From Chromatiales bacterium (GTDB taxonomy: Bacteria; Pseudomonadota; Gammaproteobacteria; Poriferisulfidales; Oxydemutatoraceae), in NCBI GenBank assembly GCA_014323925.1, contig JACONC010000005.1, positions 16,117 through 80,116 of the forward strand: a stretch of 64,000 bases of DNA, written 5' to 3'. Made by a program: the position numbers and the translations under genes. The notes beneath the pieces were generated by a model, which ran no database searches, had not been told where the DNA came from, and was given only the letters and a program-made list of their open reading frames with translations. Each line of letters begins with the position of its first letter. Position 1 is the stretch's first letter. Below are positions 17,904-36,661 of the stretch, piece by piece.

Positions 17904-18118
17904 GTCGCTTGGTTGCACAAAGCACGCCACCCACCATTAAACGATCGCGACAAACCTATGTGGTGAGCCACCGGCATGCGTAGCGTGTCGTCTCGCAACA
18001 TCACACAGCAAAATGTTATGGTTAAAAACAGTAACAGAGTTCGGCAGGCACTGCCCATCTTACACAAGGCATGTATAATAAATCCTCTTTAACTATAGTC
18101 CTTAGGATACTGTAAATC

Positions 18119-19207: not shown

Positions 19208-19243
19208 TGTTTGGGCAAAGCTGTCAAACTATCTGATGCCCCA

Positions 19244-19951
19244 ATGAGAACGCTTGCTATTGGTGATATACACGGCACGCACAAGGCAATGCTACAGTGC
19301 TTTGACAGGTCTCAGTTTGATTATGAGGAGGATCAACTGATTGTGTTGGGCGATGTTTGTGATGGTTATCCGCAAGTCAAGCAATGCATAGATGAGTTAT
19401 TAAAAATTAAGCATTGTCGTTTGGTCATCGGTAATCACGATATATGGGCATTGGACTGGGCGCTGAAAGGTGAGATGCCTGAAATATGGACTCGCCAAGG
19501 CGGTGCGCGAACCATCGCTTCGTATGATGGCGAACCTATGCCGAAAGCGCATATTGAGTTTTTAAGAGGCGGAGAACTTTGGATTGAACGCAACAAGCAA
19601 TTCTTTGTGCACGGTGGCTTCAAGCCTGATGTGCCGCTTAACAAGCATACTGCAAAAATGTTTATTTGGGATAGAACGCTTATTGATACGGCATGGGAAA
19701 AACATACCACCAACACCGCATGCCAATTAGGCAAGTATAAAGATATATTTATCGGTCATACGACAACCGAACACTTTGAAACATTAGAACCGCTAAATGT
19801 ATGCAACATCTGGGATTTAGATACCGGTGCCGGCTGGAGCGGCAAACTGACCCTTATGGATGTTGACACAAAAGAATACTGGCAGTCCGATTTAACACAG
19901 GATTTATATGGCGGATTACCCAATCAACTGGCAGCACAATGGAGTGCTTAA
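19244..19951 (+). CDS. metallophosphoesterase, Ser/Thr protein phosphatase PrpA/ApaH-like
   Basis: LAIGDIHG...GDVCDGYPQ...GNHD motifs of the calcineurin-like phosphoesterase family. The track ORF starts at a TTG (19211) only 4 nt after leuB; I chose the internal ATG at 19244. Confidence 0.7.
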   Translation: MRTLAIGDIHGTHKAMLQCFDRSQFDYEEDQLIVLGDVCDGYPQVKQCIDELLKIKHCRLVIGNHDIWALDWALKGEMPEIWTRQGGARTIASYDGEPMPKAHIEFLRGGELWIERNKQFFVHGGFKPDVPLNKHTAKMFIWDRTLIDTAWEKHTTNTACQLGKYKDIFIGHTTTEHFETLEPLNVCNIWDLDTGAGWSGKLTLMDVDTKEYWQSDLTQDLYGGLPNQLAAQWSA

Positions 19952-20004
19952 CATAGCGACTATATGATGTACTATGATACTTTCATAAAATAGTAGGCAT
20001 AAAA

Positions 20005-20052
20005 TTAGTGGAGAAAAAATTAGTGGAGAAAAAATTGACAGAGAAAAAATTA
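20005..20052. repeat. three imperfect 15-bp tandem repeats (TTAGTGGAGAAAAAA x2, TTGACAGAGAAAAAA)
   Basis: Read directly in the sequence. They lie at the 5' end of the ORF track's call for the TlpA-like gene (encoding EKKL-VEKKL-TEKKL), probably upstream of the real start at 20098. Confidence 0.6.
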
Positions 20053-20640
20053 ACGAAGCGGTTCTATGCAGCGGCACGCACACTGCTCTCTAGTTGGATG
20101 AAGGCAGTCACCTTTTGCTTGTGCGTGGCAATTATATTTATCGGCACGATGCCGCCCTCGACCTCCATCACCTTATCCGACCATCCCAAAACATTACCGC
20201 CATTTCATACCCAAGAAGCGATTGACTGGCTCAATTCTCCGCCGCTACAAGTGGAAGACCTAAAAGGCAAAGTGGTACTCATTGATTTTTGGACTTACAG
20301 CTGTTGGAATTGCTATCGCTCTTTCCCGTGGCTAAACACTATGGAAGCCCGCTTCAAAGACGAGGATTTTATCGTCATTGGTGTGCACACCCCTGAGTTT
20401 GACCACGAACGAGACCGCAGTAAAGTAGCCGAAAAAATCAAAGAATTCGGATTACATCACCCCGTTGTCATAGACAACGATCACCGCTACTGGCAAGCCA
20501 TGCGCAACCGCTACTGGCCGGCATTCTATGTGGTAGATAAACAAGGAAACATCCGCCACCACTATGTTGGCGAAACCCACGAAGGCAGCCAACGCGCCCG
20601 CATCATAGAACAGGCGATAAGCCAACTGCTCGCCGAGTAA
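20008..20640 (+). CDS. TlpA-like thiol:disulfide oxidoreductase (thioredoxin-fold redoxin), membrane-anchored
   Basis: WTYSCWNCYRSFP is a CxxC redox motif in a TlpA/ResA-like context, preceded by an N-terminal TM helix. The probable real start is the ATG at 20098 (MKAVTF). Confidence 0.6.
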   Translation: MEKKLVEKKLTEKKLTKRFYAAARTLLSSWMKAVTFCLCVAIIFIGTMPPSTSITLSDHPKTLPPFHTQEAIDWLNSPPLQVEDLKGKVVLIDFWTYSCWNCYRSFPWLNTMEARFKDEDFIVIGVHTPEFDHERDRSKVAEKIKEFGLHHPVVIDNDHRYWQAMRNRYWPAFYVVDKQGNIRHHYVGETHEGSQRARIIEQAISQLLAE

Positions 20641-20688
20641 GTGCATAATATCAAAACCCCAGAGCCTTATAAATCTATAGGCACCCCA

Positions 20689-20728
20689 CCAAATTAAGTG
20701 TGCAAATTAAGTATGCAAATTAAGTGTG
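20689..20728. repeat. three 13-bp tandem repeats (CAAATTAAGTGTG / CAAATTAAGTATG / CAAATTAAGTGTG)
   Basis: Read directly. They sit in the intergenic stretch at the left edge of the defence island. Confidence 0.6.
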
Positions 20729-20810
20729 TGCCACCAAGATATTCGCATTAGAGCAGTGCGCCGACATAATGCATATTTGATAAGGTGCTGAAAAAACGAC
20801 CTTAACTCTG

Positions 20811-21263
20811 TTAAGCAGTCTGGTCTAGCCTATATGTGCTGATAGATGTTCTGCTTCTAATAGCCTTTATTTGCCTAGTTCTTCTTTTGGGTGGCGTGCT
20901 GTAGACATTCCACTTTGGAACTACCAATAGAGAAAAACCTAATTGTCGTAATTTCAGTTCCACTGACTCTTTAATTGTAGTCTTACCATTTTCCATAGAC
21001 TTCAGCGTTCTTTCAGCTATTTCCAGCTCCTTTGCCAATTCTTTAGGGGTATAGCCCATCTCAGTCCTCAAAAATCTTATCTCATCTCCATTGATAGATT
21101 TGGACTCTAGAATGTCCTTAGCAATTAACCAGTGTAAAGCATGTATATTAGGAATTGTTATCACCTTCTCGCCATCGTCATCAGCAAAATGCAACCCATC
21201 AATATACACATTTTTTAGCCCACACTCAGTGTAATGGTATCTTTCTTTACTCTCTGCTTTCAT
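20811..21263 (-). CDS. XRE-family HTH protein, putative antitoxin of a type II TA pair
   Basis: 150 aa with a central HTH (TPKELAKELEIAERTLKSMENGK). Its start overlaps the stop of the upstream toxin-like gene by 17 nt, in a toxin-first arrangement like HigBA/MqsRA. Confidence 0.5.
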   Translation of the reverse strand: MKAESKERYHYTECGLKNVYIDGLHFADDDGEKVITIPNIHALHWLIAKDILESKSINGDEIRFLRTEMGYTPKELAKELEIAERTLKSMENGKTTIKESVELKLRQLGFSLLVVPKWNVYSTPPKRRTRQIKAIRSRTSISTYRLDQTA

Positions 21264-21582
21264 TTTCCCACATCACGGTTACTAGTTTAACAGCACAACG
21301 CTCTAAGCTGGGTATAATTACGATGCATATTCTTTTACCTCCAGAGTTAGGTGTGTAACCAGCAATTTTATACTTGTATAAGCCCTCATCAGATCTAGTG
21401 GTTTCATCAAGGCTTATCAGTTCAAATTTGTGTCTGAGGAGATACAGTATATCAGACATGATAATACCACGCTCGATTAAACGTTGCTTAGCATGTCTAG
21501 TCCACGTAATCCGCTCTATTCCGTTATTTCTTTGCAGAAAATCAAATAATTTTTTTTCATTTAAGGGTTTATGAGAGTACAT
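21247..21582 (-). CDS. DUF4258-family putative toxin (RelE/ParE-superfamily-like)
   Basis: The 111-aa protein has a TRHAKQRLIERGI motif that I remember as diagnostic of DUF4258 toxins. It is translationally coupled to the downstream HTH gene. Confidence 0.5.
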   Translation of the reverse strand: MYSHKPLNEKKLFDFLQRNNGIERITWTRHAKQRLIERGIIMSDILYLLRHKFELISLDETTRSDEGLYKYKIAGYTPNSGGKRICIVIIPSLERCAVKLVTVMWENESRE

Positions 21583-21668
21583 ATTATGTTGAGGGAAATA
21601 ATTCTAACAAAGTCTTAATCATGCTATCAAAATTGTATTATCAACATCGGTTCTATCTGCCACTGCTC

Positions 21669-22382
21669 TTAAGACAGTGCCATTTCTAGTTTGTGTTTGC
21701 GGGTGAGCCAGTCGGGCATGGTTCTGTCCAGCAGGCGGTAGAATTCGTTGCTGTGATTGTGGTGTTTGAGGTGGCAGAGTTCGTGGACGATAACATATTC
21801 TATACATTCTTTGGGGGTTTTGATTAAGTCGGTGTTGAGTGTGAGTTGTCCTCTGGGAGAGAGGCTGCCCCATCTTGTTTTAAGCCATTGGATTCTGAGT
21901 TTGGGTTTTATGTGTGTCGCTTGGTCAAAGTTATTCCAGCAGTTGTCTACCATCTTGGTTAAATAGACGAAGGCGTGGCGTTGATACCATGTTGTCATCA
22001 ATTTGCGTATGTAGGTTGGGTCGGACCTGATGCATTGTATATAGAAATAGCCGCTCTTTAACAGCACTTGGTCTCTGCTTGCGAGGGAAATTTTGAGGCG
22101 GTATTTTCTGCCCAAATAGAGATGACTTTCACCGCCGACATATTGTCGCGGTGGTGTTCTTGGTTCAAAGCGGTTGAAGTATGCGATTTGTTTAGTAATC
22201 CAGCGTACCCGTTTGGCAACGCGCGCACGGATAGTATCTATAGAGTAGACCGCAGGTGCTTTAACGACCACTCGCTTATCAGGATGTACCGCTATCTCCA
22301 GCGACTTTCGGTCCATTAGCAATAGTTCGTAGTTGATAACGGTTTCGCCGTAGTGTATCGTGCAAGCGATGGGCTGGGTCAT
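21669..22382 (-). CDS. M48/DUF45 (YgjP-like) zinc metallopeptidase associated with Type I R-M
   Basis: HELCHLKHHNH HExxH zinc motif; 237 aa. Its start overlaps the hsdR stop by 4 nt, which is the classic hsdR-linked DUF45 gene. Confidence 0.7.
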   Translation of the reverse strand: MTQPIACTIHYGETVINYELLLMDRKSLEIAVHPDKRVVVKAPAVYSIDTIRARVAKRVRWITKQIAYFNRFEPRTPPRQYVGGESHLYLGRKYRLKISLASRDQVLLKSGYFYIQCIRSDPTYIRKLMTTWYQRHAFVYLTKMVDNCWNNFDQATHIKPKLRIQWLKTRWGSLSPRGQLTLNTDLIKTPKECIEYVIVHELCHLKHHNHSNEFYRLLDRTMPDWLTRKHKLEMALS

Positions 22383-25300
22383 GTGCTGCGTCTGCTTTCA
22401 GCGATTTTCATGACTCGGCTGATAATATCAACCACCTGTTCCCCTGGTAGCGATATGTTAAATCTTGCTTTGACATCATCGGATAGGTAGTCGTCTATAT
22501 CGCTTTTGATAGAATTACAGGCATCAAAATTGCGCCAAAAATCCACTATAGTATTCTCGTTCAAAATCTTTTGAATGTACAAAGCGGTTTCTGATGCTGC
22601 CTGTTCGGCAAGTTTGTCGTCAGCCAGCCCCTTAAAATGAGATTGCATCACGCCGAAGTAAGCGCAAGCCTCGCGGTTTTCACGTATCGCTTCAGGGACA
22701 TCGTCGCGGGTGTTGGAACTCACCTGATTGCGAACATCCATTGCGATTTTCAAATAGGCTGTGTCTATGATTCTCCCTTGCCTAAAATCGTCTATTGCTT
22801 GTTGAATCAACTTTGAGAACTTTTCATAAAAGGTGGGGTCTTGGTTCTTAAATTTCTCTTTAAGGGTCTTTTTCGTTGCGTGTGCAATGGCATCGGCTCT
22901 AGCTGCGGTTGACCTCACCGACTGATCGTGGATAGGGTTATCCTTCATCACCGCATTGACCGACCGCTCGTCCATTATGTCAATTGGTTCGCTTATTTGT
23001 ATCACTTCCCTGTCCGCGTGTATATGCCTATCCAGAAGTTTCTCTATTCTATTTTCATAAACACCAAAGTCTATTTTTTCGGCGTAGCGCAACTGAACGG
23101 ACTTGCGCAGTTTCATAAAATGCTTAAGGTCACCTCTATAACGGTCTAATTCCTGCTCATCAATCTCGGATAAAAACTTATCGCTAGATAGGGCAATGGC
23201 GAGAGTTTTGCTATATTCGGTCAGACACTCGTAAAAATCGTCGCGTTTATTTTGATCAGCAAGCAGTCTCTCAAATGCTTCGTTATCATTTTTGTTTGTT
23301 ATTTCTTTGAAAATATCCCACAAAGCGGCATGCGCTACCGGCAACTTATCTATTTCTTCTCTGATAGAAATCAGTGCCTTGGCAATATCCTCCTCGTCAA
23401 AGTCCTTAAAAGCATCATACATTATTAATGCTTTATCCAGTTCCGCCAATACTCTATCGTAGTCAACGATATAGCCATGGTCTTTGCCTTCATAGATGCG
23501 ATTGACGCGAGCGATGGCTTGTAGCAAGCTATGTTCTCTTAAGTTCTTGCATAAATAAAGCACCGTGTTCCTAGGTGCATCAAAACCGGTTAAGAGTTTA
23601 TCCACCACGATGATAATTTCCGGTTCTCTCTCGTATTTGAATTGGTCAATAATTTGCTTTTCGTATTCCTGAGGCGTGCCGTACTGATTCATCATTCTTC
23701 TCCAAAATCTGACGACTTCAGCGGTTGAGTCATCATCTATTTTTTGATGACCCTCGCGCGTATCTGGCGACGAGATAACCACTTCCGAACTAACACATCC
23801 TATATCCTCTAATGCGTGGTGATATCTAATGGCTGTGAGCTTGTCGGGTGCGACCAGCTGGGCTTTGAACTCAGTGTCCTGCCAGTTTTCCCTAAAATGC
23901 ATACTAATATCCCACGCACGCGCATAGATCACTTGCTCCGTTTTATTGAGCATCCGCGCACGCGCATATTTTCTCTTCAAATCGGCTTTCTGTTCATCCG
24001 ATAGATCATCGGTGTGCCTCTCAAACCACAAGTCAATGTCCGCTTGGTCTTGTTTTATTCCAACATGCCTGGCTTCGTATAGTAGCGACACAATAGTTTT
24101 ATCTTTCACTGCTTGTTCAATGGGATAACTTGGTTCTATCAAGCGGCCGAATTTGCGAAAACTGTCTTTGTCTTTTTTCATCAGCGGAGTGCCGGTGAAA
24201 CCAATATAACACGCATTAGGTAGCATCTTCCTCATTTTCGCAGCAAAGAAGGCAAAGTTTGTGCGATGGCTTTCATCCACCAACACAAACAGATTGGTAT
24301 CGTCGTCAACATAATCCTGTGCCTTTAATGCCGTATTAAATTTATGTATGACGGTGGTAATAATCGGTGTTTTTGCTTTGAGAAGGGTCGTTAAATTTTT
24401 ACCCGTAGTTGCTCGTGTTCTTTCCAGACCACATTGCTTAAATGTATTTCCCAGCTGCTCATCCAAATCGGTCCTGTCGGTGACCAGTAAAATCCGCGGA
24501 TTGCTAATTTCTGTATCTGATATCAATGCTCTCACCATCATCACCATAGTCAACGACTTGCCTGAGCCTTGTGTGTGCCATACGATGCCGCCTTCACGAC
24601 GGTTGCCATCGTATTGCTTGACTCGCTTTAAGGCATTGTGCACCACGAAAAATTGCTGATAGCGGGCAATTTTTTTAGCACCGTGTTCAAAGATAGTAAA
24701 ACGATAGGTCAGGTCTAGAAGCCGCTCAGGTCGGCATAAACTATAAATCGCCTTGTCCTGTTCAGTGAGTTGCCTGCCACCCTGGGCGTCTATCTCGTCA
24801 AAGTGTTGACGACACTGTGCAAACTCATCAGTAAACAAAACCTCCTTTTGTGCGGCAGACAAAGGTTGATTGACCAACGCTTGGATATCGTCATCTTTGT
24901 CTTCGAGCTCTTGCCATACACTCCAAAATTTTTCCGAAGTACCGGCGGTTGCATATTCCGCCTCATTTTTATTGACCGCTAAAACAAGTTGCGCATAAGC
25001 AAATAGATTGGGAATATAATCCGTACCTTGATTGCGGATATGTTGAGAAATCGCTTCCTCTACTTCAACCTCAGGCGATTTACACTCAATTACACACAAA
25101 GGAATACCGTTGATAAACAGCACAATATCAGGTCTTGCATGCGCATTTGAATGTGCACGCTCAACCGCAAACTCAGGCAACGCATGAAACACATTGTTGG
25201 TTATATCCTTCCAGTCAATGTAGTTTAAGTCAAAACTTCGCGTATTATTCTCCACCGTCTGCGTCAAAGATACCGGCAATGTAATGTAGTCATAAATAGC

Positions 25301-25579
25301 TTCCTGTGTTTTACCTCGCCCGTCACGCCGCACACCCTTAAATTTCTGCACAGCCTCTTGAATGTTCGCCTCCGAGAACAGATACTCTCGCCCCTGATAG
25401 TGGATACGATTAATCTTGTGCAGCTGTTCAGTTAAGATACTCTCCAATAACACATTGCCCGTACTGCCGCCACGCACCGCCAACGCCGCAGCAGGCGGCA
25501 ACACCTGATAACCCAGTTTCGCCAACAACTGCAACGCCGGAATCTGCGACGATCGCAACTCATCAATTTTTAACGACAT
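22379..25579 (-). CDS. hsdR: Type I restriction enzyme R subunit
   Basis: 1066 aa with an N-terminal nuclease region, a Walker A (HTQGSGKS), the DEAH-like VLVDESHR box, SF2 helicase motifs, and the C-terminal helical domain typical of HsdR. Confidence 0.9.
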   Translation of the reverse strand: MSLKIDELRSSQIPALQLLAKLGYQVLPPAAALAVRGGSTGNVLLESILTEQLHKINRIHYQGREYLFSEANIQEAVQKFKGVRRDGRGKTQEAIYDYITLPVSLTQTVENNTRSFDLNYIDWKDITNNVFHALPEFAVERAHSNAHARPDIVLFINGIPLCVIECKSPEVEVEEAISQHIRNQGTDYIPNLFAYAQLVLAVNKNEAEYATAGTSEKFWSVWQELEDKDDDIQALVNQPLSAAQKEVLFTDEFAQCRQHFDEIDAQGGRQLTEQDKAIYSLCRPERLLDLTYRFTIFEHGAKKIARYQQFFVVHNALKRVKQYDGNRREGGIVWHTQGSGKSLTMVMMVRALISDTEISNPRILLVTDRTDLDEQLGNTFKQCGLERTRATTGKNLTTLLKAKTPIITTVIHKFNTALKAQDYVDDDTNLFVLVDESHRTNFAFFAAKMRKMLPNACYIGFTGTPLMKKDKDSFRKFGRLIEPSYPIEQAVKDKTIVSLLYEARHVGIKQDQADIDLWFERHTDDLSDEQKADLKRKYARARMLNKTEQVIYARAWDISMHFRENWQDTEFKAQLVAPDKLTAIRYHHALEDIGCVSSEVVISSPDTREGHQKIDDDSTAEVVRFWRRMMNQYGTPQEYEKQIIDQFKYEREPEIIIVVDKLLTGFDAPRNTVLYLCKNLREHSLLQAIARVNRIYEGKDHGYIVDYDRVLAELDKALIMYDAFKDFDEEDIAKALISIREEIDKLPVAHAALWDIFKEITNKNDNEAFERLLADQNKRDDFYECLTEYSKTLAIALSSDKFLSEIDEQELDRYRGDLKHFMKLRKSVQLRYAEKIDFGVYENRIEKLLDRHIHADREVIQISEPIDIMDERSVNAVMKDNPIHDQSVRSTAARADAIAHATKKTLKEKFKNQDPTFYEKFSKLIQQAIDDFRQGRIIDTAYLKIAMDVRNQVSSNTRDDVPEAIRENREACAYFGVMQSHFKGLADDKLAEQAASETALYIQKILNENTIVDFWRNFDACNSIKSDIDDYLSDDVKARFNISLPGEQVVDIISRVMKIAESRRST

Positions 25580-25748
25580 AACATAACCCTATACTGATAC
25601 TGAACAACTATAATCAAAACCTTTGATAACCCCATACTACTGTGTGCCATAGTCGTCCGTAACCAGTGCCATTGCCTCCTTCAGTAACTTTCTCTGCGAG
25701 ACTGGTCCCCCCTTTTAGTATTAACTAATGCGGTTATCATCGTATAGT

Positions 25749-28001
25749 TCAGGATTTCTTTCTCATATATTTTTCATAATGTTCTTTATAGCCAGTTTCT
25801 ATAAAAACTTGCCTAAATGCTTCTCTAAATACGTCAGTATCTATTTCTCTATTATCGCAAATATTCGTAGCATCAGAGTGTGCTTCTCTATTCATGTATC
25901 GGCAAAATGCTCCGTATTTTTTTGAATCCATAGATTCCAGTATTTTGTGTAGTTTCTTTTTCTCACAGAGGAAGAACGCGAAAAAATACTCAAGTATGTT
26001 CCTCATACTAATCGCCAATAAGGCACTGGTTACTTTTTCTGAAGAATCTTTAATTATCTGCCAATATGATTGGTATTCATTTTGTATGTCATTTTCGTCT
26101 ATGGGTTCAATGAGGGATCCTTGCTTACCTTTTATAACTCTAAAATAGTCTATTGCATTGCTTTCGTTTATCTTTAGTTCATGGAAAAAATATAAACTGT
26201 GAGTCAATATAAATAATTGGTAGTTCTTTCCATCAGTGTTGTTCTTTCTATAAAATTTTTCCTTGATAAGCATAGCTACATTGTATATATGTATGTGAGA
26301 TAAGCTGGATATAGGGTCATCAATAACAATTATTTTATTTTTATCTACCTCATCTGGTTTCTCCCTTCCTAGACATAATTCTATAAAATAAAGAAAGCTA
26401 ATTATCATTTTTTCACCCTCGCTTAAAGTCTTAAAAGCATTTTTATTTTGTCCGTTTCGGACAACCCTGTAATGTTCTTTTTTTTGTTCATGTTTCTCAA
26501 TCTTGAAACCTTCCATGTTGAGTTCACGGAGCCTATTGTTTATACTAAAAATAGCATCTTCTATATTCAATGTATAGCGCTGTGCCTCCTGAATAATTTC
26601 ATTCTGCTTGCCAACTTCCTTTTTTGATTCCTTTATACTGGCTTCCGTTTTCCCTATCTTATTCTTTATCTCGCCTGTATCTTCTTGGTATCTGGTTATC
26701 GTTTGATCATAGTCGCAGCGCATTATTTGCCAAAATATATTCTTAATATCTTCTTTAGTTTGCGCTATGTTCTGAATTTGTAGATTATGCTTATCTATAT
26801 CTTGATTTATTAGGTTTATCGCTTGGTTTAATTTCTCTATATTTCCCTGGGTGCTTTGTAATTCCATCCTTTGGCTTGGGGTATTAATTTTATTTTCAAT
26901 TTTTTGTAAATTGGCGTCTATTTTTCTTAATAGATTTGCATGTAGGCTATTAAAATCAGTTTTATTTGTAGCATCTTTTTGTATATAGGTATTGTCATCA
27001 AACTCTCCTTTGAGGCTGTTAGCTCTATTTTTACTTTCGTTGTATCGTTCTCTTAATTGCCTTAAGTTTTTTAGTTGTTGTTCATAAGTCTCATCAAAAT
27101 AATTCTTTATCTCGTTGGCTAATTCTTTACTGATAGTTTTCTCCTGACAAAAAGGACATTGCTCATTTTCTGTTATATCGTCAGGTTCATTTATATAACA
27201 GACACCCTGACGCACCCAATCGGAATTATTTAACTGTGTAATTAATTCTTTTATCTGGCTATCTTGGTTACCTGTAATAGGTTCTTGAAAAATAGTATTT
27301 CTTTCAATAGCTGCGAAGTCTTTTGGTTCCATGCTATTGAGTGGCTTAATAGTTTGCCCATCTTGCAATGCCTGAGCTTCCTTTTCAAGGTCTTCTACAG
27401 TTTTACTAGGTTTTGTTTCAGGTTTAGAGATATTTATAATATGCTTAAATAGTTTTTTCTTATCTCCTTTAAAGCCTGCTACACAAAAATCTAAAGGCCT
27501 ATCTTTTCCAGAATAATTCGTAATTATCTCCCAGATTTTGTCACGAGCTGCTACCTTAAAATTAGCTTCTTCGGTTTCTAAATCTTTCTTTAGAGCTTCT
27601 TGATTACTCAAACGTTTTTGAAGTTCTTCCTTTTCCTTTTTAGCTTTTTCAATTTCTTTTTCAGCTGCTTTATTTTGTGAAGACAAAGTAAAAATACCCT
27701 TTTGTGATCCTTCTATGCTTTGAAAAATATCTTCAATAAAATTTTGGTTATAGACTAATATCTTTTCTCCATCCTCAAAACCTTCTATAGAGCAGTCACC
27801 ATAATCTATATCAGGTGGGTTTTTACTTTCATCTCTATTATTTGCTTCATACCTAAGATAATCAGATAAGATCGACTTTCCAGTACCATTAAGTCCATAA
27901 AAAAGGTTAATATCCTTGTTTGTTTTTATAGGTTCAGGGTTCTCATCCTTATAAGTTGCTACATTTTTCAGTGTGATTTTTTTAATCATATTAGCCTCCA
28001 T
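25749..28001 (-). CDS. AAA ATPase with coiled-coil and CxxC zinc-hook insert; RloC/PrrC-like anticodon nuclease candidate
   Basis: 750 aa. Walker A (GLNGTGKS) at the N-terminus, a long Lys/Glu-rich coiled coil, a central CPFC motif (QCPFCQEK), and a distal ABC-type signature-like region (DDPISSLS, FILTHS). It lies between hsdS (16-nt overlap) and hsdR, the canonical prrC/rloC position. Confidence 0.55.
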   Translation of the reverse strand: MEANMIKKITLKNVATYKDENPEPIKTNKDINLFYGLNGTGKSILSDYLRYEANNRDESKNPPDIDYGDCSIEGFEDGEKILVYNQNFIEDIFQSIEGSQKGIFTLSSQNKAAEKEIEKAKKEKEELQKRLSNQEALKKDLETEEANFKVAARDKIWEIITNYSGKDRPLDFCVAGFKGDKKKLFKHIINISKPETKPSKTVEDLEKEAQALQDGQTIKPLNSMEPKDFAAIERNTIFQEPITGNQDSQIKELITQLNNSDWVRQGVCYINEPDDITENEQCPFCQEKTISKELANEIKNYFDETYEQQLKNLRQLRERYNESKNRANSLKGEFDDNTYIQKDATNKTDFNSLHANLLRKIDANLQKIENKINTPSQRMELQSTQGNIEKLNQAINLINQDIDKHNLQIQNIAQTKEDIKNIFWQIMRCDYDQTITRYQEDTGEIKNKIGKTEASIKESKKEVGKQNEIIQEAQRYTLNIEDAIFSINNRLRELNMEGFKIEKHEQKKEHYRVVRNGQNKNAFKTLSEGEKMIISFLYFIELCLGREKPDEVDKNKIIVIDDPISSLSHIHIYNVAMLIKEKFYRKNNTDGKNYQLFILTHSLYFFHELKINESNAIDYFRVIKGKQGSLIEPIDENDIQNEYQSYWQIIKDSSEKVTSALLAISMRNILEYFFAFFLCEKKKLHKILESMDSKKYGAFCRYMNREAHSDATNICDNREIDTDVFREAFRQVFIETGYKEHYEKYMRKKS

Positions 28002-29089
28002 TTGGCGGTGAGTAGTTTTTGCATTAAGCCGCGTTTTTGTATGCGGTATCGTTCTGTTAATTGTTTCAGTAAAGTAATTTCTTGTTGGGCGGTATTGAGA
28101 ATTTGAGTAATGGCTTTTTGCTTTTTGATATCGGGCAAGGCAATCGGAATAATACTCAAACTATCAAAGCTGACTGTTTTCCTGACGCTGCCTTGTTCGC
28201 TATTTTTAATTCGCTGCTTGGCTTCGTCGGATGATAGCCAATATAAAAAGTAATCATTCTCAATTTTCTCTGGGTTCAATTTGAAAACTGTATACATCGG
28301 GCTTATTATTCCGTTATGCCAATTATCTAACCTGGCTATTGAACCGACATTAATACGGGCTGGATTGTATGCATATTGACTGCGTTTAACAATTTTGTAG
28401 TTAGAAACATTGCTACTAGCAACTCGTCTTTCAAATTGTTCTTCAGGTAGCACAAAACCACTATGATTAGTAACGCTTAGGACACGGTCTAGCTGATTAT
28501 CTTTGTTGCGTATTGATACTTCCTCAATAAAGTTTAGTAAACGGGTCATTTTATGATCGGATTTGTTGATTAGAGAATTTACCAACCACTCAAACTGTTT
28601 TTTTTTTGCGGCGATTAGGGCTTCGGTTTTTTCAATCGCTGTGTCCCATGTTTCTAATAGAGAGGCGATGGCTTTTTGTTCGGCGAGAGGGGGTATTTTT
28701 ATATCTTGTGCGTACGCAATATTTCTATTCAAACCAGGCACCGCAGAATCTGAATTTAAACTATTTAACCCAAGATTCTTGAGCAAATAGTAAAGAAAAT
28801 GTAAATCACATTTTGTGTTTCGTTCTGAGATATAAAAAGTAGTATCAATAGGGAAAAATGATATGTCACTCTTATAAACGGAGCCTGCTGTTCCTTTTCT
28901 ACCAATAATGATTCCCGGCTCTTTTACTAATGGTTCATTATGCTTTCCAATTAATCCAGCAGAACTAAACACTGGTACATCACCTAAAATCCTCCTCTGC
29001 TTTGGCAATGATTGGCCATAATTAAAAACTGCCACTTCACCCAGTCTCATTTCTTGCCATCCTTTTGGTAATATTTGTTTTTTCATCAT
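27986..29089 (-). CDS. hsdS: Type I restriction-modification specificity subunit
   Basis: 367 aa with two target-recognition-domain halves and conserved repeats (PPLAEQKAIASLLE, LPDIKKQKAITQIL). It is downstream of hsdM. Confidence 0.8.
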   Translation of the reverse strand: MMKKQILPKGWQEMRLGEVAVFNYGQSLPKQRRILGDVPVFSSAGLIGKHNEPLVKEPGIIIGRKGTAGSVYKSDISFFPIDTTFYISERNTKCDLHFLYYLLKNLGLNSLNSDSAVPGLNRNIAYAQDIKIPPLAEQKAIASLLETWDTAIEKTEALIAAKKKQFEWLVNSLINKSDHKMTRLLNFIEEVSIRNKDNQLDRVLSVTNHSGFVLPEEQFERRVASSNVSNYKIVKRSQYAYNPARINVGSIARLDNWHNGIISPMYTVFKLNPEKIENDYFLYWLSSDEAKQRIKNSEQGSVRKTVSFDSLSIIPIALPDIKKQKAITQILNTAQQEITLLKQLTERYRIQKRGLMQKLLTAKWRLI

Positions 29090-29131
29090 CTCTCACCAAT
29101 CTGTAAATACATCACCTGTACATGCGCAGAT

Positions 29132-30646
29132 TCATCTATCAATCCCTTTCAGTAGTTCTCTCATCTTTGTTCGCACTGCACTCAGTTCATTTTCCATTGT
29201 GTCTATTTCATTTTGCACCGCATCAATATCTATTTCTTCCTCTTCTTCAAAGGTGTCTACATAGCGGGGGATGTTCAGGTTAAAGTCATTTTTTTTGATT
29301 GCGTCCAAGTCAGCTAGGTAGGCATATTTATCAACCTTTCGGCGGGCTTCGTAGGTTTTCAGTATCTTGTCTATGTGTGCATCCAGCAGGCTGTTTTGGT
29401 TCTTACCGGCTTGATAGTCGCGGCTGGCATCTATGAATAAGACATCTTTGCGGTGTTGATTTTTGCCGTATTTTTCCCGCGACCTATCAAAGATAAGGAT
29501 AGCAACTGGAATAGATGTGGTTGGAAAGAGATTTTTTGGCAAGCCGATAACTGCGTCCAGCAGGTTGTCTTCTATCAGTTTGGTGCGAATGCGTCCTTCA
29601 GATGCGCCGCGAAATAAAACACCGTGTGGCACAACGACTACAACTCGGCCTTTTTTCTCTGTAGCTGCTTCAATCATATGACTGATGAACGCATAATCGC
29701 CTTTTGACTTGGGTGGTATACCCCGCCAGAAGCGATTGTAGGGATCGTTCGCAGCATCTTCAGCACCCCATTTTTTCATAGAAAAAGGTGGGTTAGCAAC
29801 GATGTTGTCAAACTTCATTAGACGATTTTTATCTACCAGATTGGGATCCTTGAGAGTGTCGCACCACTCTATTCTTGCTGAGCTTTTGCTGTGCAGAAAC
29901 ATGTTCATACGACACAACGCCCAAGTGATAATGTTTGATTCCATGCCGTAGAGTGCATAGTCAGGGCTTGCGACTACCTTTGCTGCTTCAATCAGCAGTC
30001 CGCCCGACCCACAGGCCGGGTCACAGATGCGCGCACCGGCACTCGGCTTGCACAGCTTGGCAACGAGTTCGGATACTTTGTGTGGTGTGTAGAACTCTCC
30101 CGCTTTCTTGCCGGCATCTGAGGCAAAGCGTTCTATTAAATAGATATAGGTATTGCCGATGACATCTTCCGAGACCCGAGGTGGGCGCATATCCAACTGG
30201 GGTTTGTTGAAATCCTCCAGCAGTGTTTTCAGTCGCCGATTTTTATCCTTAGCCTCACCAAGATAGGTTTCGGAATTAAAGTCTATTTTGCGTAATACGC
30301 CTCCCAACTTTTCTTTGTTTTTGATCTCAATGGCACCCAATGCCTGATTGATAATATCACCGATATTTGGTTCGTTGCGCTGATTATATAAATCGTAAAA
30401 ACTTGACCCTTTGGGCAAAACACACCATTTTAGCTTTAGCTTGCGGAGAATACGCGCATCATCGTCGCCGTACTGTTGCTTATAGGCATCATAGTGGTAT
30501 TGCCATACATCGGAGATATATTTGACAAATAATATCACCAGAATATAGTCCTTGTAGTTGGCTGCGTCTACTACGCCGCGGAAAGTGTCGCAAGCCGACC
30601 ACGCCGCATTGTTGATGTCTTGCTGTTTAATAGTCGTTTGTTCCAT
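29132..30646 (-). CDS. hsdM: Type I R-M N6-adenine DNA methyltransferase subunit
   Basis: 504 aa with the HsdM N-terminal domain, the AdoMet motif DPACGSGG and the catalytic NPPF (ANPPFSMKKW). Confidence 0.9.
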   Translation of the reverse strand: MEQTTIKQQDINNAAWSACDTFRGVVDAANYKDYILVILFVKYISDVWQYHYDAYKQQYGDDDARILRKLKLKWCVLPKGSSFYDLYNQRNEPNIGDIINQALGAIEIKNKEKLGGVLRKIDFNSETYLGEAKDKNRRLKTLLEDFNKPQLDMRPPRVSEDVIGNTYIYLIERFASDAGKKAGEFYTPHKVSELVAKLCKPSAGARICDPACGSGGLLIEAAKVVASPDYALYGMESNIITWALCRMNMFLHSKSSARIEWCDTLKDPNLVDKNRLMKFDNIVANPPFSMKKWGAEDAANDPYNRFWRGIPPKSKGDYAFISHMIEAATEKKGRVVVVVPHGVLFRGASEGRIRTKLIEDNLLDAVIGLPKNLFPTTSIPVAILIFDRSREKYGKNQHRKDVLFIDASRDYQAGKNQNSLLDAHIDKILKTYEARRKVDKYAYLADLDAIKKNDFNLNIPRYVDTFEEEEEIDIDAVQNEIDTMENELSAVRTKMRELLKGIDR

Positions 30647-30975
30647 TGTTATTGCCTTATTAGTAGTTTATCTCTTATCTCTTGGTGGATGCGGGTCATT
30701 GCCGTAGCTATTTCCATCTCTGATTTTTCCGTTCTAATGTATAGTAATCGGCAATACACTTTTGCTTTTCTTGATACGGGATGATTGCTTGTAGTTTCGC
30801 CAATGTTCGTTTGCTTATCATTTTAACTACCGATCCTTCGGAACGCATGCGGAAATATGCCTGCAATACCGATCGCTGTACTCCTCAATAAGAGCAACCC
30901 TCTCTATCAGTATCATTATATATAATGTAAGAAAACTTGGATAGGTTCAAAAATTAAAACCATTGGAGGTGAACC

Positions 30976-32094
30976 ATGCAAAAAGATATGCACTTTTGGG
31001 GTACCTATGTTATCACTAGAGCGGCGGGAGTTCCGATGAACGACGCCCATACCATTGCTTATGCTGCTCAATATGTAGACGATTCCACCCAGCAAGATAG
31101 CGAACAACATGAAGACGGTGGGTTGCTCTACGGTATTGCAACTGCGCATCATGCTTTGAAAAGTGCGGCAAACAGTGTTATTGATCGCGAAGCGCAACGC
31201 CGAGTATGGGTGCCGTTTCATTTTATACCGGGTGGCATGGGCAAAACTTTAGCAGAGAAATTACTCTGCGTTAAAGATAGCGAAATCGCCCAAGAGATGA
31301 TCACGCACCATATTGCTAAGGCAAAAGAAAAAACCTTTGCACTAGAACTTATCGGCATTGCTGCCCATGTCTATATGGATACATTCTCTCACTATGGATT
31401 CTCTGGGATTAGTTCCGAATACAACGCGGTAAAGGCGGACTCTTTTAAGTTTTTTAATGTTGAATCAGGGTCGCGGATAGAAAAGTACATTAAAGGTAAA
31501 CACAGTGCCTTTGTTGAAAAGTACAAAGAACAAATAGAACAAGTGCATAATTTTTTCGCGGGGATAAAAAGTTCTGTAGCGGAAGCAGGTTCTGGTGCTT
31601 TAGGACATGCGGGCGTTGTCACCTATCCCGACCGACCTTTTTTACACTGGCAAGTTGAGTTTGAGCGTGCGCGTGCTGATAAATTATCTAATCGCAATAA
31701 TCCGCAAACCTATCTTGAAGGGTGCGAAAAATTGCACGGCTACTTAAGTGAATTTGCACGAGAGAGATACGAACAACCAGAGATTGTGCCGTTTGAAAAT
31801 ATCAAAGGCGAGGTAGAAAAGATTATCCAATTTCAAGGTGCTAAGGAAGAGCGCATAGATAAATGGAAGCAGGCGATTACTGAAAGGACCGTATATGCTC
31901 CTGAAGAGGGTGAAGCGAAAGAAACCAAATATGAAGCGAGTCTGTGGGAGGAGGAGAAAGAAGGATTTCATAATGCCACATCATCTAGCGAGGGTATTGA
32001 CACGAATGTCTACCGTTTTCATCAGGCAGCCGCCTTTCACCGCTATTATGTCTTAAAGGATCTCTTGCCCAAGCATAATATTGCTGTTTACTAG
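30976..32094 (+). CDS. hypothetical cytoplasmic His/Asp-rich protein; possible zinc-dependent PLC / S1-P1 nuclease-fold hydrolase
   Basis: 372 aa, no signal peptide. The N-terminus HFWGTYVITRAAG...AHTIAYAAQYVDD resembles the WGxxGHxxVAYxAQxYV opening of S1/P1 nucleases, and there are further His/Asp clusters (VPFHFIPG, AHVYMDTFSHYGFSG, LGHAGVV). It is divergent from hsdM. Confidence 0.35.
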   Translation: MQKDMHFWGTYVITRAAGVPMNDAHTIAYAAQYVDDSTQQDSEQHEDGGLLYGIATAHHALKSAANSVIDREAQRRVWVPFHFIPGGMGKTLAEKLLCVKDSEIAQEMITHHIAKAKEKTFALELIGIAAHVYMDTFSHYGFSGISSEYNAVKADSFKFFNVESGSRIEKYIKGKHSAFVEKYKEQIEQVHNFFAGIKSSVAEAGSGALGHAGVVTYPDRPFLHWQVEFERARADKLSNRNNPQTYLEGCEKLHGYLSEFARERYEQPEIVPFENIKGEVEKIIQFQGAKEERIDKWKQAITERTVYAPEEGEAKETKYEASLWEEEKEGFHNATSSSEGIDTNVYRFHQAAAFHRYYVLKDLLPKHNIAVY

Positions 32095-32385
32095 ACTTGC
32101 AGTCGATCGTCCACTATCGACTAAGGGCACCCTCACTTTAATCTAAACAGCACAATTTTCTGGTTAAGACAAAAAAGTAGCAGCAATATTCTTGCCAACG
32201 AATTTCTCCAATTTTTGTCCTTATGCGATAATACCTTGATTTTGTGAGGAAGCCATTGGTTGGTTTTATCTCGCAAACTGAAAAATATAAGGATGGCTGA
32301 TGGTGTAATGTGGGGATATCCGCTGGCAAGTGCTTAAGGTCTCCTTGCGCGTCGCTCAATTAACATTTACGCATTGTATATCTAG

Positions 32386-33405
32386 ATGAAAAAAGTCAAT
32401 ATAGCAGTTGTCGGTGCCACTGGGGCAGTCGGTGAGGTCATGCTTGAGGTTCTGCAGCAGCGGGATTTCCCAGTAGATGAGTTGTATCCGCTTGCGAGCA
32501 GGCGGTCGGCGGGTGGTGTTGTGCGGTTTAGGGGGCAGGATTGCGAGATTGGTCTGCTGGATGATTTTGATTTTGCGCGCACGAGTATTGCACTGTTTTC
32601 AGCAGGTGCTTCAGTGTCAGATGTTTATGCGCCGCGCGCAGCAGATGCGGGTAATGTTGTAATAGATAATACTTCGCGTTTTCGCAACGAGGCAGATATT
32701 CCGCTGGTGGTGCCAGAGGTTAATGCGCATGCGGCAGCAGATTATGCGCCGCGGCGGATTATTGCTAATCCGAATTGTTCGACGATACAGATGGTGGTGG
32801 TGTTGAAGCCGCTGCACGATTTGTTCGATATCAGCCGAGTGAATGTTGCTACTTATCAGGCGGTTTCGGGCGGCGGGCGGCGTGCACAGGATGAGATGTT
32901 GGCACAAACTCGTATGCAGTTGGATGGTGAGGTGGTGCAGACTGAAGTTTATCCGAAGCAGATTGCGTTCAATGCGTTGCCACAGATAGATTGTTTTATG
33001 GACAACGGCTATACACGGGAAGAGATGAAGATGGTTTGGGAGACGCAAAAGATTTTGGGGGATGAGCAGATTAAGGTGAATCCCACGACCGTGCGTATCC
33101 CAGTGGTGAACGGACATTCGGAAGCAATACATATAGAGTTCAAGCAACAGGTAGATGAGGTCGCCGCTCGTGAGGCATTGGAGAAAGCGCCTGGCATTAA
33201 GGTGTTGGATGAGCGTGTCGCAGGCGGGTATCCAACAGCTGTAACCGAAGCGGATCATCAGGATGCGGTTTGGGTTGGGCGTATACGTAAGGATATTTCC
33301 CATCCCAATGGGCTCAATGTATGGGTGGTGGCAGATAATTTACGCAAAGGTGCGGCGACCAACAGTGTACAAATCGCCGAGTTGATGTTGCGGGAGTATT
33401 TGTAA
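32386..33405 (+). CDS. asd: aspartate-semialdehyde dehydrogenase (short, USG-1-like type)
   Basis: NIAVVGATGAVG Rossmann motif and the active-site NPNCSTIQMVVVLKPLH. 339 aa. The leuB...asd-fimV-truA neighbourhood matches Pseudomonas. Confidence 0.85.
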   Translation: MKKVNIAVVGATGAVGEVMLEVLQQRDFPVDELYPLASRRSAGGVVRFRGQDCEIGLLDDFDFARTSIALFSAGASVSDVYAPRAADAGNVVIDNTSRFRNEADIPLVVPEVNAHAAADYAPRRIIANPNCSTIQMVVVLKPLHDLFDISRVNVATYQAVSGGGRRAQDEMLAQTRMQLDGEVVQTEVYPKQIAFNALPQIDCFMDNGYTREEMKMVWETQKILGDEQIKVNPTTVRIPVVNGHSEAIHIEFKQQVDEVAAREALEKAPGIKVLDERVAGGYPTAVTEADHQDAVWVGRIRKDISHPNGLNVWVVADNLRKGAATNSVQIAELMLREYL

Positions 33406-33669
33406 AGAGAGTTGTTGCGGTTGGTTTTCATGCTCTGATGATGATACGCAACAGCATGCGGTTATCGCGCGATGTTTAATATAGATATAGGGTTGACTAA
33501 AATTTTATGGTATGCCTCTGGTGTGCAACGGCTTATGGGGTGTGCGTATAGGTGTCTATTTAGCAGCGCTGTTAAGGTTGCTTATAAAGCAGACTGTTTA
33601 TGTTACTTTAACAAACGGCGCCTGATGAGGTCTGAAAGTGACTGCATAGGGACACCTCTATGGTTTGCA

Positions 33670-35028
33670 ATGGCACTAGGCAAGGACAATCACACTGGGT
33701 TGTCCTTGCGGTGGTCGATGTTGTGGCTGGTGTTGAGTTGTTTTGCGGTGAGTTCGGCAGTGGCGTTGGAGTTGGGCGACCTATCAGTTGACAGCGAGGT
33801 CGAGCAGATATTGGATGCCAAGGTCACGCTAGGCGATGTAGCACGCGAGAACTTAGCAAATTGGTATGTGTTACCTACGGATGAGAACGATTATCAGGCG
33901 CAAGGGCTTGAGTATCTAAAGAGTTTGCACGACCGCTTGGTGATGGAGATAGTAACATCGGCAAATCCACCTTATATTGCGGTTAGCAGTCTTGTGTCCA
34001 TCGGACTTGATAGTTTTGATTTAATCGTTCGCATCGGCGACGGCGATAAGATATTGAGTAATACTTATCGGCCAATATTAAAAGAGCCATCGGCACCGCT
34101 GCCTGAAATAATCAAAGCGATGACACCTGCTGAGATGTTGAATTATTTGGTGAATAAGCTCGCTACCGCGCAAAACATCCCTGCTGGAGAAGTATGGGGT
34201 GAGTTGCAATTATTGACGACTGCCACTGATCCGGATGGCGAATACAAGTTCATGTCGTATCTAAGTTCAGTCAATGTAGACCCGCGCTTTTTAGCTGGTG
34301 TAGAAGCAATGCTCAGCGATTATCAAAAGACTGTTTTTGATAAGGCTCGTGCTGAGTCGGGTGATGCTCGTGCAGTCGCTACGATATTATTCGCTCAGCA
34401 AGGCTTTCTGATATTAAAGGCATTATTTGGCAAAGCGACTGAGTCTTCACTAGAAGAAGGTGAGACCAGGAGCGAGCAATTAGACTTTGCCCGTGAAAAT
34501 GCGGCAATATTGCAAAACAAACTTTTTGCGCTTGAGTATGCTAAAGCGCAGCAAGATGCGGCAGCACAGCAAGGACAAGCCGATACGGCGGTTGGTCAAG
34601 ATAAAAAGTTTCGTTGGTCGGATTATCTGCAGTGGGGAGAGCAGCCGTTGATGACGAACGCTAAATTTTGGATGGTTGTGGCAATGTTCTTAGTTGTACT
34701 GCTATTGCTGGAGAGCCTATGGTTACTTAAGAAGCGAAAGGCACTGCCTATTCGGCAAGCGAGCAATGTCGGTCGTATGGGTGCACCGTTGCCGGGGCAA
34801 GAGAAATTAGCAAAACTGCGCTCTCCACGAGAGTATGTAGAGCCGCCGAATAATTTGCCCAAAGTCACAGCCGATAAGACTATTGGCAAGCTCAACCAAG
34901 CCGAAGCCTATATAGAAATGGGTGACTACGACAAAGCAAGCCGTCTACTCAAGGAAGTAGAGCGACAAAGCGAGGATGCCGAGCAACTAGCACGTCTGGG
35001 TAGCTTACGAGATAAAATGAAAAAATGA
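33670..35028 (+). CDS. FimV-like protein (C-terminal FimV domain)
   Basis: Signal peptide (MLWLVLSCFAVSSAVA), a single TM helix (FWMVVAMFLVVLLLLESLWLL) and the C-terminal LNQAEAYIEMGDYDKASRLL FimV motif. It lies between asd and truA as in Pseudomonas. The start is uncertain: the track ORF begins at 33472 and 33718 is another candidate. Confidence 0.6.
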   Translation: MALGKDNHTGLSLRWSMLWLVLSCFAVSSAVALELGDLSVDSEVEQILDAKVTLGDVARENLANWYVLPTDENDYQAQGLEYLKSLHDRLVMEIVTSANPPYIAVSSLVSIGLDSFDLIVRIGDGDKILSNTYRPILKEPSAPLPEIIKAMTPAEMLNYLVNKLATAQNIPAGEVWGELQLLTTATDPDGEYKFMSYLSSVNVDPRFLAGVEAMLSDYQKTVFDKARAESGDARAVATILFAQQGFLILKALFGKATESSLEEGETRSEQLDFARENAAILQNKLFALEYAKAQQDAAAQQGQADTAVGQDKKFRWSDYLQWGEQPLMTNAKFWMVVAMFLVVLLLLESLWLLKKRKALPIRQASNVGRMGAPLPGQEKLAKLRSPREYVEPPNNLPKVTADKTIGKLNQAEAYIEMGDYDKASRLLKEVERQSEDAEQLARLGSLRDKMKK

Positions 35029-36585: not shown

Positions 36586-36661
36586 TGGTAGGCGCGATTG
36601 GATTTGAACCAACGACCCCCACTATGTGAAAGTGGTGCTCTAACCACTGAGCTACGCGCCT
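36586..36661 (-). tRNA. tRNA-Val (anticodon CAC)
   Basis: Minus strand: AGGCGCGTAGCTCAGTGGTTAGAGCACCACTTTCACATAGTGGGGGTCGTTGGTTCAAATCCAATCGCGCCTACCA. It folds as a cloverleaf with a 7-bp acceptor stem, closely resembles E. coli tRNA-Val, and has a TTCACAT anticodon loop. Confidence 0.8.

Follow-up and report, generated by a model that had tools for sequence, protein, structure and literature searches.

The RloC proteins of Geobacillus kaustophilus (GkaRloC) and Acinetobacter baylyi (AbaRloC) have been studied and are known as wobble-nucleotide-excising nucleases (PMC2610378, PMC3458546, PMC3874168). Published RloC proteins range from 658 to 897 aa and the family was named from genes of Campylobacter jejuni located in a type I restriction-modification (R-M) locus (PMC2610378); most rloC genes are stand-alone. 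The evidence on its control points to an internal switch consisting of a zinc hook and a DNA-dependent ATPase (PMC3458546). PrrC, known from the type IC locus ecoprrI of E. coli (EcoPrrC), cuts only once, on the 5' side of the wobble base, and is kept silent by an outside factor, EcoprrI (PMC2610378, PMC3458546, PMC3874168). It is 341–416 aa long with an undivided ATPase, lacks a coiled-coil/CxxC insert and harbours a PrrC box together with a terminal Walker A Arg for dTTP sensing (PMC3458546).

Two further groups share features with these proteins. Rad50, SbcC and T4 gp46 have an ABC head divided by a helical insert, which carries a CP-x-C zinc-hook motif, while PARIS AriA, Lamassu LmuB and Septu/retron PtuA have SMC/Rad50-like heads that gate a toxic nuclease, which in these systems is a separate protein of another fold (TOPRIM, Cap4 or HNH).

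The gene described here comes from an uncultured Chromatiales bacterium and is a further, R-M-linked example of the RloC family, which has been known since 2008. With a probability of roughly 0.7 it encodes, judging from its sequence, an RloC-family latent anticodon nuclease and, coupled in translation, is an integral part of the type I R-M operon hsdM-hsdS-rloC-hsdR-ygjP. It resembles RloC in its ABC-ATPase motifs, its helical insert with a central CxxC, the motifs Arg-x3-Glu-x36-His and Rx6H, its size (746–750 aa, inside the published range) and its type I R-M locus; it differs in having an Ala before the catalytic His, in its E-H spacing of 36 and in being part of a conserved 5-gene hsd cassette. 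With PrrC it shares the operon order hsdM-hsdS-X-hsdR, the ATPase motifs and the catalytic Arg/Glu/His.

Gene model and family assignment

In the window (the whole stretch of 64,000 nucleotides that was analysed) the list of open reading frames and their translations contains, as originally predicted, an ORF of 750 aa at 25749..28001 between hsdS and hsdR; the prediction had omitted that it lies on the minus strand. The ATG at 28001 is an alternative start giving 750 aa, while translation probably begins at the ATG at 27989 and yields a protein of 746 aa. The latter lies 5 nt downstream of a GGAGG sequence and matches both the NCBI gene model and the consensus N-terminus of the family. It overlaps the TGA stop of hsdS as ATGA, and this 4-nt overlap following GGAGG suggests translational coupling; the 16-nt overlap with hsdS proposed earlier holds for the first ATG only and not for the second one, preceded by the Shine-Dalgarno sequence. 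Residue numbers are throughout those of the 750-aa form, and all features are collected in Table 1.

Table 1. Positions in the window of the rloC-like gene, the parts of its product and the surrounding operon
Feature	Position	Strand	Basis
hsdM, N6-adenine methyltransferase subunit	29132..30646	-	Pfam N6_Mtase (E 8.8e-100) and HsdM_N
hsdS, specificity subunit, two target-recognition domains	27986..29089	-	Pfam Methylase_S (E 1.4e-27), 2 stretches
GGAGG ribosome-binding site	27995..27999	-	read directly
rloC-like gene	25749..27989	-	ORF list, translation, AAA_13, PDC-S06, identical NCBI protein
ABC-ATPase head N-lobe, aa 5-105	27687..27989	-	motif conservation, Foldseek matches to Rad50/SMC heads
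Walker A GLNGTGKS, aa 36-43	27873-27896	-	
Helical insert, aa 106-495	26517..27686	-	AF2 (mean pLDDT 82) and DSSP, crude heptad scan, weak SMC/ASRP profile matches
CPFC, zinc-hook-type CxxC, aa 282-285	27147..27158	-	invariant in homologs
ABC-ATPase head C-lobe, aa 496-633	26103..26516	-	invariant residues, PrrC profile (E 5.5e-10, C-terminal 283 aa)
ABC signature LSEGE, aa 526-530	26412-26426	-	
Walker B/D-loop IIVIDDPISSLS	26298-26333	-	
Linchpin His601	26199-26201	-	
Putative anticodon-nuclease (HEPN-type) domain, aa 634-750	25752..26102	-	catalytic-residue motifs
R667-x3-E671 (R667-NIL-E671)	25989-26003	-	
R701-x6-H708 (R701-YMNREA-H708)	25878-25901	-	
hsdR, restriction/translocase subunit	22379..25579	-	Pfam HSDR_N, SWI2_SNF2, T1R_D3-like
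YgjP-like metallopeptidase gene	21669..22382	-	Pfam YgjP-like (E 7.5e-54); 4-nt overlap with hsdR stop

An identical protein of 746 aa in NCBI (P0001) is annotated "AAA family ATPase". Profile searches revealed a match to Pfam AAA_13 that covers the protein end to end (E = 9.3e-118, profile positions 1–712 of 713) and is far beyond chance, a match to the PADLOC candidate profile PDC-S06 with E 1.2e-227, and one to the PADLOC PrrC profile with E 1.2e-9 for the whole protein. The weak profile and fold matches to PARIS AriA, LmuB and PtuA score orders of magnitude below those to PDC-S06 and AAA_13. Homologs at 42–46% identity carry the JGI name "wobble nucleotide-excising tRNase", a name that denotes RloC, and COG4694, AAA_13 and PDC-S06 are presumably labels of this same family. 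The nearest relatives found are ~52% identical and the rest of the family 27–46%. PDB searches, in which both the protein sequence and the family profile served as queries, gave no PrrC or RloC structure, only weak Rad50 (5da9) and spurious coiled-coil matches.

Membership in PrrC proper was excluded by the size of the protein, by the insert of 390 aa and by the residue directly after the Walker A GKS, which is Ile44 and not Arg. Membership in Rad50/SbcC was excluded by the extra C-terminal domain and by a Pfam search that found no Mre11/SbcD-like partner gene in the operon. All sequence hallmarks published for RloC are present and are conserved in homologs as distant as 27% identity. As far as sequence can tell, the protein is an ordinary member of the RloC family, with a Rad50-like ATPase fused to a putative latent tRNA-cutting nuclease, and the original prediction of an RloC/PrrC-like ABC-type ATPase with a CxxC helical insert and a C-terminal anticodon-nuclease domain survived all sequence-level tests that were run. 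The generic annotation is thereby corrected; the RloC family is already in the defence-system catalogues, and the practical value of the correction is modest.

The divided ATPase and its insert

Conservation was judged in two alignments, one of 46 close homologs and one of 30 homologs at 27–46% identity, and the comparison with GkaRloC was made by landmark residue numbers and not by direct alignment. On this basis the mutationally validated residues K44, C291, D572, R692, E696 and H737 of GkaRloC are co-linear with residues found here (PMC2610378, PMC3458546). The predicted Walker A is present, with G36, N38, G39, G41 and K42 invariant in both alignments, and the N-lobe also contains a conserved YNQ (Q86). 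VIDDPISSLS (aa 559–568) and FILTHS (aa 597–602), previously described as a signature/Walker-B-like region, were found as well, but VIDD is the Walker B (IIVIDD, aa 557–562) and SSLS (aa 565–568) the D-loop, while the real signature, LSEGE, had been overlooked. Residues S527, E528, E530, D561, D562, P563, S565–S568, T600 and H601 are invariant in both alignments.

When the AF2 model (pLDDT 82) was run through Foldseek, matches to the heads of Rad50, SMC, PtuA and LmuB were obtained, the top ones being Rad50 7zr1 and 5dac, and the predicted head resembles Rad50/SMC heads. These top matches would also fit an accessory SMC/Rad50-like ATPase that serves the type I enzyme without being a nuclease, for instance in the handling of DNA ends or loops, with a C-terminal domain that is structural only. 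We regard this as highly improbable; Rad50 and SbcC lack the extra 117-aa C-terminal domain of putative RNase type found here (PMC2610378), no Mre11/SbcD-like gene accompanies the ATPase in the operon, and the residues of that domain, described below, speak against it.

The insert splits the ATPase head and, as in RloC, is largely alpha-helical and broken by a central CX2C loop. The QCPFCQEK sequence containing this CxxC was located at aa 281–288, as predicted, and C282, P283 and C285 are invariant down to 27% identity. By residue number the CPFC corresponds to C291 of GkaRloC, the mutation of which activates the nuclease (PMC3458546). Long helices were predicted at aa 108–156 and 292–475 (AF2/DSSP), separated by a region of short helices rich in invariant residues (aa 157–270, pLDDT >90 to about aa 210, then 79–92). 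The CPFC itself is modelled within a beta-hairpin flanked by helical segments. The Rad50-style, Lys/Glu-rich coiled coil proposed earlier agrees with the composition of aa 100–500 (K 12%, E 11%) and the expected position of the CxxC between helical segments is also seen in the model, but the arm before it is a predicted conserved globular helical subdomain and not a plain coiled coil. It is far shorter than the insert of Rad50, and asymmetric. Since it departs from the simple antiparallel coiled coil of Rad50, the details of the zinc-hook mechanism may be different. A further possibility, in view of the conserved globular subdomain in front of CPFC, is that the "hook" is a structured zinc module instead of a Rad50-like apex.

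The C-terminal domain

The RloC triad has been defined as a C-proximal Arg-X3-Glu-X36-52-His, often with a Ser before the His (PMC2610378). The sequence R667-x3-E671-x36-H708 fits this triad, with R667 and H708 invariant in both alignments and E671 invariant among the close homologs and at least 90% conserved among the more distant ones. The catalytic residues, earlier held not to be obvious, are in fact plain to see, and the C-terminal ~120 aa are, on the conservation of these residues, a good candidate for an anticodon nuclease. The spacing of 36 between E and H is the lower limit of the RloC range and Ala707 precedes the catalytic His, where at least 90% of the relatives have a Ser. The NREAHSD cluster of the original prediction was found at aa 704–710. 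R701-x6-H708, both residues of which are invariant among the 30 homologs, also agrees with the motif Rx4-6H of the HEPN superfamily (PMC3710099).

The predicted catalytic loop (aa 707–714) has a pLDDT <50, structural comparison of the C-terminal fold gave no confident match to any RNase, and the isolated 117-aa domain did not match the PADLOC PrrC profile. The missing RNase match favours the accessory ATPase mentioned above; against it stand R667, R701 and H708, invariant across homologs at 27–46% identity, with E671 nearly so, and mutation of the matching residues kills the nuclease activity of GkaRloC (PMC2610378).

A nuclease of HEPN type under the same switch might also have another substrate (mRNA, rRNA or a non-wobble site in tRNA), in which case "anticodon nuclease" would be wrong for this clade. 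The clade is only 27–46% identical to other family members, HEPN RNases have diverse targets (PMC3710099) and the tRNA-recognition region of PrrC has no described counterpart in RloC (PMC2610378). We nevertheless consider another substrate improbable, as PrrC and RloC from two phyla both cut tRNA anticodon loops (PMC2610378, PMC3874168) and this protein retains the catalytic residues at the conserved distances from one another.

Operon context and control of the nuclease

The Pfam order hsdM-hsdS-X-hsdR bears out the proposed placement between hsdS and hsdR, as for prrC/rloC. The gene is separated from hsdR by 169 nt. The best solved relative of HsdR is the HsdR of EcoR124I (E 5e-33). Both closest relatives (L081 and L082) share the cassette hsdM-hsdS-rloC-hsdR-ygjP, with ygjP at the equal position (77–78% identity) as a conserved fifth gene. 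A scan of the operon for promoters and terminators gave counts no higher than those expected from shuffling, with no terminator in the interval from rloC to hsdR, the 169-nt spacer showed no conservation with the spacers of these two relatives, and an Rfam search of 20000–32500 had no match. Among relatives at 39–46% identity HsdS is encoded directly upstream in 19 of 71 cases and HsdR directly downstream in 10 of 70, while an HsdS or N6_Mtase gene is located directly upstream in at least 28 of 71; the majority of the relatives do not adjoin R-M genes.

On the favoured reading of a latent RloC-type anticodon nuclease, and by analogy with the RloC orthologs of G. kaustophilus and A. baylyi, the CxxC/zinc joint would hold the nuclease off in the resting state. 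DNA ends or broken DNA on the ATPase head, together with ATP hydrolysis, would switch on the C-terminal metal-independent RNase, which would cut tRNA anticodon loops with excision of the wobble nucleotide; this would then stop translation and abort the infection. The location of rloC inside the hsd operon, implying co-expression and co-transfer with a DNA defence, suggests that the nuclease would act when restriction fails or is alleviated. Its role would thus probably be that of a back-up suicide defence against phage.

The original prediction took it as established for RloC and PrrC alike that the nuclease is kept silent by the R-M complex and released by anti-restriction factors, but this has been shown for PrrC only. 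Such control, in which the nuclease is bound and silenced by HsdM2S1R2 and freed by a Stp-, Ocr- or Ard-like anti-restriction protein of a phage, would be compatible with an internal switch and we regard it as possible, though doubtful. The order hsdM-hsdS-X-hsdR equals prrA-prrB-prrC-prrD (10.1101/2021.01.18.427177, PMC12707154), the ATGA coupling to hsdS hints that the two products are made together in stoichiometric amounts, the cassette is kept in the closest relatives, and the share of relatives with HsdS or N6_Mtase directly upstream compares with 8 of 73 in the whole-RloC census of 2008 (PMC2610378). PrrC partners type IC enzymes (PMC3874168) and EcoR124I is of type IC, but the type IC assignment is weak since EcoR124I is almost the sole full-length HsdR in the PDB. 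Furthermore, all elements of the internal RloC switch are kept here and Ile44 stands in place of the PrrC Arg (PMC3458546), and in A. baylyi, although its R-M system is unlinked, hsdR, hsdM and hsdS mutants showed unchanged silencing and activation of RloC (PMC3874168). As most relatives are not located beside R-M genes, the family can do without a silencer from outside.

It is conceivable, but in our view unlikely, that the R-M-embedded clade combines both controls, the zinc-hook/DNA-dependent ATPase switch being linked to the condition of the cognate Hsd complex, e.g. through DNA ends or stalled translocation from HsdR, perhaps with involvement of the YgjP-like peptidase. The compact, conserved five-gene cassette is well suited for testing whether an R-M-linked RloC answers to its R-M partner, like PrrC, or only to DNA damage, like stand-alone RloC.

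The GC content of the rloC-like gene is 31.8%, compared with 44–45% for hsdR and hsdM; this dip was rejected as a mark of recent insertion, being equal in the two closest relatives. An ORF with a Metallophos domain (19211–19951) is situated on the opposite strand, outside the island.

Family assignment of the window protein

The 750-codon ORF between hsdS and hsdR is present as claimed in the original prediction, although its strand has to be amended to minus, and all the quoted peptide motifs were found in place. Its identification as a RloC/PrrC-like protein proved correct on profile, motif and neighbour evidence. Pfam AAA_13 (PF13166) covers the whole protein (profile positions 1-712 of 713, E = 9.3e-118), the PADLOC candidate single-gene system PDC-S06 matched with E = 1.2e-227 and the PADLOC PrrC profile with E = 1.2e-9 (aa 452-742). 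An identical sequence from a Chromatiales MAG is already found at NCBI, named 'AAA family ATPase', and JGI annotates homologs with 42-46% identity as 'wobble nucleotide-excising tRNase', a name for RloC. The family comprises 937 clusters (50% identity) at E <= 1e-30, with 354 relatives in many phyla among 185,579 species genomes.

Davidov and Kaufmann defined RloC as proteins of 658-897 aa with PrrC-like ABC-ATPase motifs, a helical insert with CX2C at its centre and a C-proximal Arg-X3-Glu-X36-52-His triad (PMC2610378). In the window protein the ATPase motifs are K42 in GLNGTGKS, LSEGE (aa 526-530), IIVIDD (557-562), SSLS (565-568) and H601, the CX2C is CPFC (282-285) and the triad is R667-x3-E671-x36-H708. 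In an alignment of 46 homologs with 43-52% identity these landmarks are unchanged, and a more divergent set (30 homologs, 27-46% identity) keeps every one of them invariant but E671 (at least 90% conserved). They are co-linear with residues K44, C291, D572, R692, E696 and H737 of G. kaustophilus RloC (GkaRloC), validated by mutagenesis (PMC2610378, PMC3458546). In addition R701-x6-H708 conforms to the HEPN criterion Rx4-6H (PMC3710099), both residues being invariant in the divergent set of 30, while among the 46 closer homologs the conservation of R701 is 90% or more. Cys70 in the ATPase N-lobe is likewise invariant down to 27% identity.

Identity with PrrC itself was rejected, the protein being twice the size of PrrC, having the insert and lacking the Arg that ends the PrrC Walker A (PMC3458546). 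In the region previously called 'signature/Walker-B-like', VIDD is indeed the Walker B, SSLS forms the D-loop, and it is LSEGE that constitutes the ABC signature. The window protein is a further member of the known RloC family, in a context already described, as the name rlo, 'restriction-linked ORF', tells. The HEPN survey, too, describes the PrrC/RloC group with the words 'often found in R-M operon' (PMC3710099).

Head, insert and nuclease domain in the predicted structure

An AlphaFold2 model was built from a 46-sequence alignment (mean pLDDT 82) and compared with the PDB using Foldseek. The matches were Rad50 (7zr1, 5dac, 5da9), SMC heads, retron/Septu PtuA and Lamassu LmuB, which confirms, for the predicted fold, a head of the Rad50/SMC type. 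A Rad50-style coiled coil with CxxC had been proposed; the long helices and CPFC are there, but the modelled insert is asymmetric, with a long helix (108-156), a short-helix segment at aa 157-270 (window 27192-27530; pLDDT > 90 to about aa 210, then 79-92), CPFC in a beta-hairpin after this segment, and further long helices (292-475). The short-helix segment is rich in invariant residues (W157, G166, D167, R168, C173, W262 and G266), and instead of a Rad50-like apex the 'hook' may belong to a structured module.

The C-terminal 283 aa match the PrrC profile (E 5.5e-10) while the isolated nuclease domain gave no match to it, in agreement with the original RloC report, where finding the triad took manual adjustment. 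Ala707 (window 25881-25883) replaces the Ser before the catalytic His, turning RESHSD into REAHSD; at least 90% of the family has Ser at this place, as do the four closest relatives aligned.

The restriction-modification cassette and control of the putative tRNase

Genes of the cassette, with protein identity of the two closest relatives to the window
Gene	Position	Strand	Features	Identity
hsdM	29132-30646	minus	Pfam N6_Mtase (E 8.8e-100) and HsdM_N	81%
hsdS	27986-29089	minus	Pfam Methylase_S, two stretches	31%
rloC	25749..28001	minus	750-codon ORF	51-52%
hsdR	22379-25579	minus	Pfam HSDR_N, SWI2_SNF2, T1R_D3-like	63%
YgjP-like metallopeptidase (DUF45/WLM/SprT-like, HExxH)	21669-22382	minus	Pfam; 4-nt overlap with hsdR stop	77-78%

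The same hsdM-hsdS-rloC-hsdR-ygjP cassette occurs in the two closest relatives (loci L081 and L082), and this sharing together with the ranking of the identities indicates at the sequence level that rloC is an old component that evolves at a higher rate than hsdM and hsdR. A GC trough at 25749-29089 (rloC 31.8% and hsdS 37.0%, against 45.2% in hsdM, 44.2% in hsdR and ~50% in the core flanks) was considered as a sign of recent insertion, which was rejected since the trough recurs in L081 and L082 (rloC 30%, hsdM 43%); the low GC is an old trait of rloC. The YgjP-like gene (13663-14373 in L081, 10288-10998 in L082) is co-conserved with the cassette, better than HsdR, and such peptidases in type I R-M operons possibly have a role in restriction alleviation or HsdR turnover. 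In L082 the rloC-hsdR junction (5224-6966) contains, ahead of an intact hsdR, a 139-aa hsdR N-terminal fragment, 49 aa left over from an hsdS 3' end (67% identity to the C-terminus of HsdS in the window) and a DUF4917 gene. This arrangement resembles a scar left by recombination or insertion at precisely this junction.

The proposed 16-nt overlap with hsdS holds if the first ATG of rloC is used but not for the second (27989), which has GGAGG 5 nt upstream, forms ATGA with the hsdS TGA and agrees with the 746-aa protein in the database as well as with the N-terminus of the family consensus. The 169-nt spacer ahead of hsdR gave no Rfam match, and promoter and terminator motifs were not above chance.

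A neighbour census of 80 loci of relatives with 39-46% identity revealed HsdS directly upstream in 19/71, an N6_Mtase-family methylase in 9 more and HsdR directly downstream in 10/70; enzymes of the Eco57I and MmeI types, GmrSD and Fic/Doc also occur next to the gene. Judged from gene neighbourhoods, at least ~39% of these relatives are linked to R-M genes, so the linkage is not universal, compared with the lower 8/73 counted in 2008 for RloC as a whole (PMC2610378).

The GkaRloC nuclease stays inactive unless a DNA-dependent ATPase switches it on, zinc-hook mutations make it constitutive, Zn2+ inhibits it, and it cleaves first on the 3' side of the wobble nucleotide, then on the 5' side (PMC2610378, PMC3458546). 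The A. baylyi RloC is activated by a double-strand-break inducer and is unchanged by loss of the unlinked hsdR, hsdM or hsdS (PMC3874168). With the anatomy of the window protein established, we infer its mechanism from these orthologs: most likely it would be a RloC-type suicide tRNase gated by DNA state, whose co-expression with the R-M system would provide a back-up defence. That the R-M complex silences the nuclease and anti-restriction factors release it had been put forward as established, which is so for PrrC but not beyond it (PMC12707154, PMC3874168); as a rival or an addition to gating by DNA state this control would nevertheless be reasonable here, given a gene order like that of prrC loci, the apparent translational coupling of rloC to hsdS and the conservation of the cassette. 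The main value of the locus is as a clean natural cassette for asking whether R-M-linked RloC proteins obey their R-M partner.

Borders of the island

The R-M island sits between leuCDB and asd-fimV-truA. The flanks are conserved housekeeping blocks, leuC-leuD-leuB with metallophosphatase and redoxin genes at 15856-20640 and asd-fimV-truA at 32386-35804. Neither an integrase nor a tRNA gene was found at the borders, the nearest tRNA being tRNA-Val (36586-36661). Just downstream of ygjP an overlapping pair (20811-21582, minus strand; GC 37-38% against ~50% in the flanks) encodes a DUF4258 protein (111 aa) and a second protein, of 150 aa, that ends in an HTH_3 domain; the pair has the look of a type II toxin-antitoxin module on the margin of the island. 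At the other edge a DUF6765 gene (30976-32094, plus strand; E 3e-87) is divergent from hsdM and adjoins asd.
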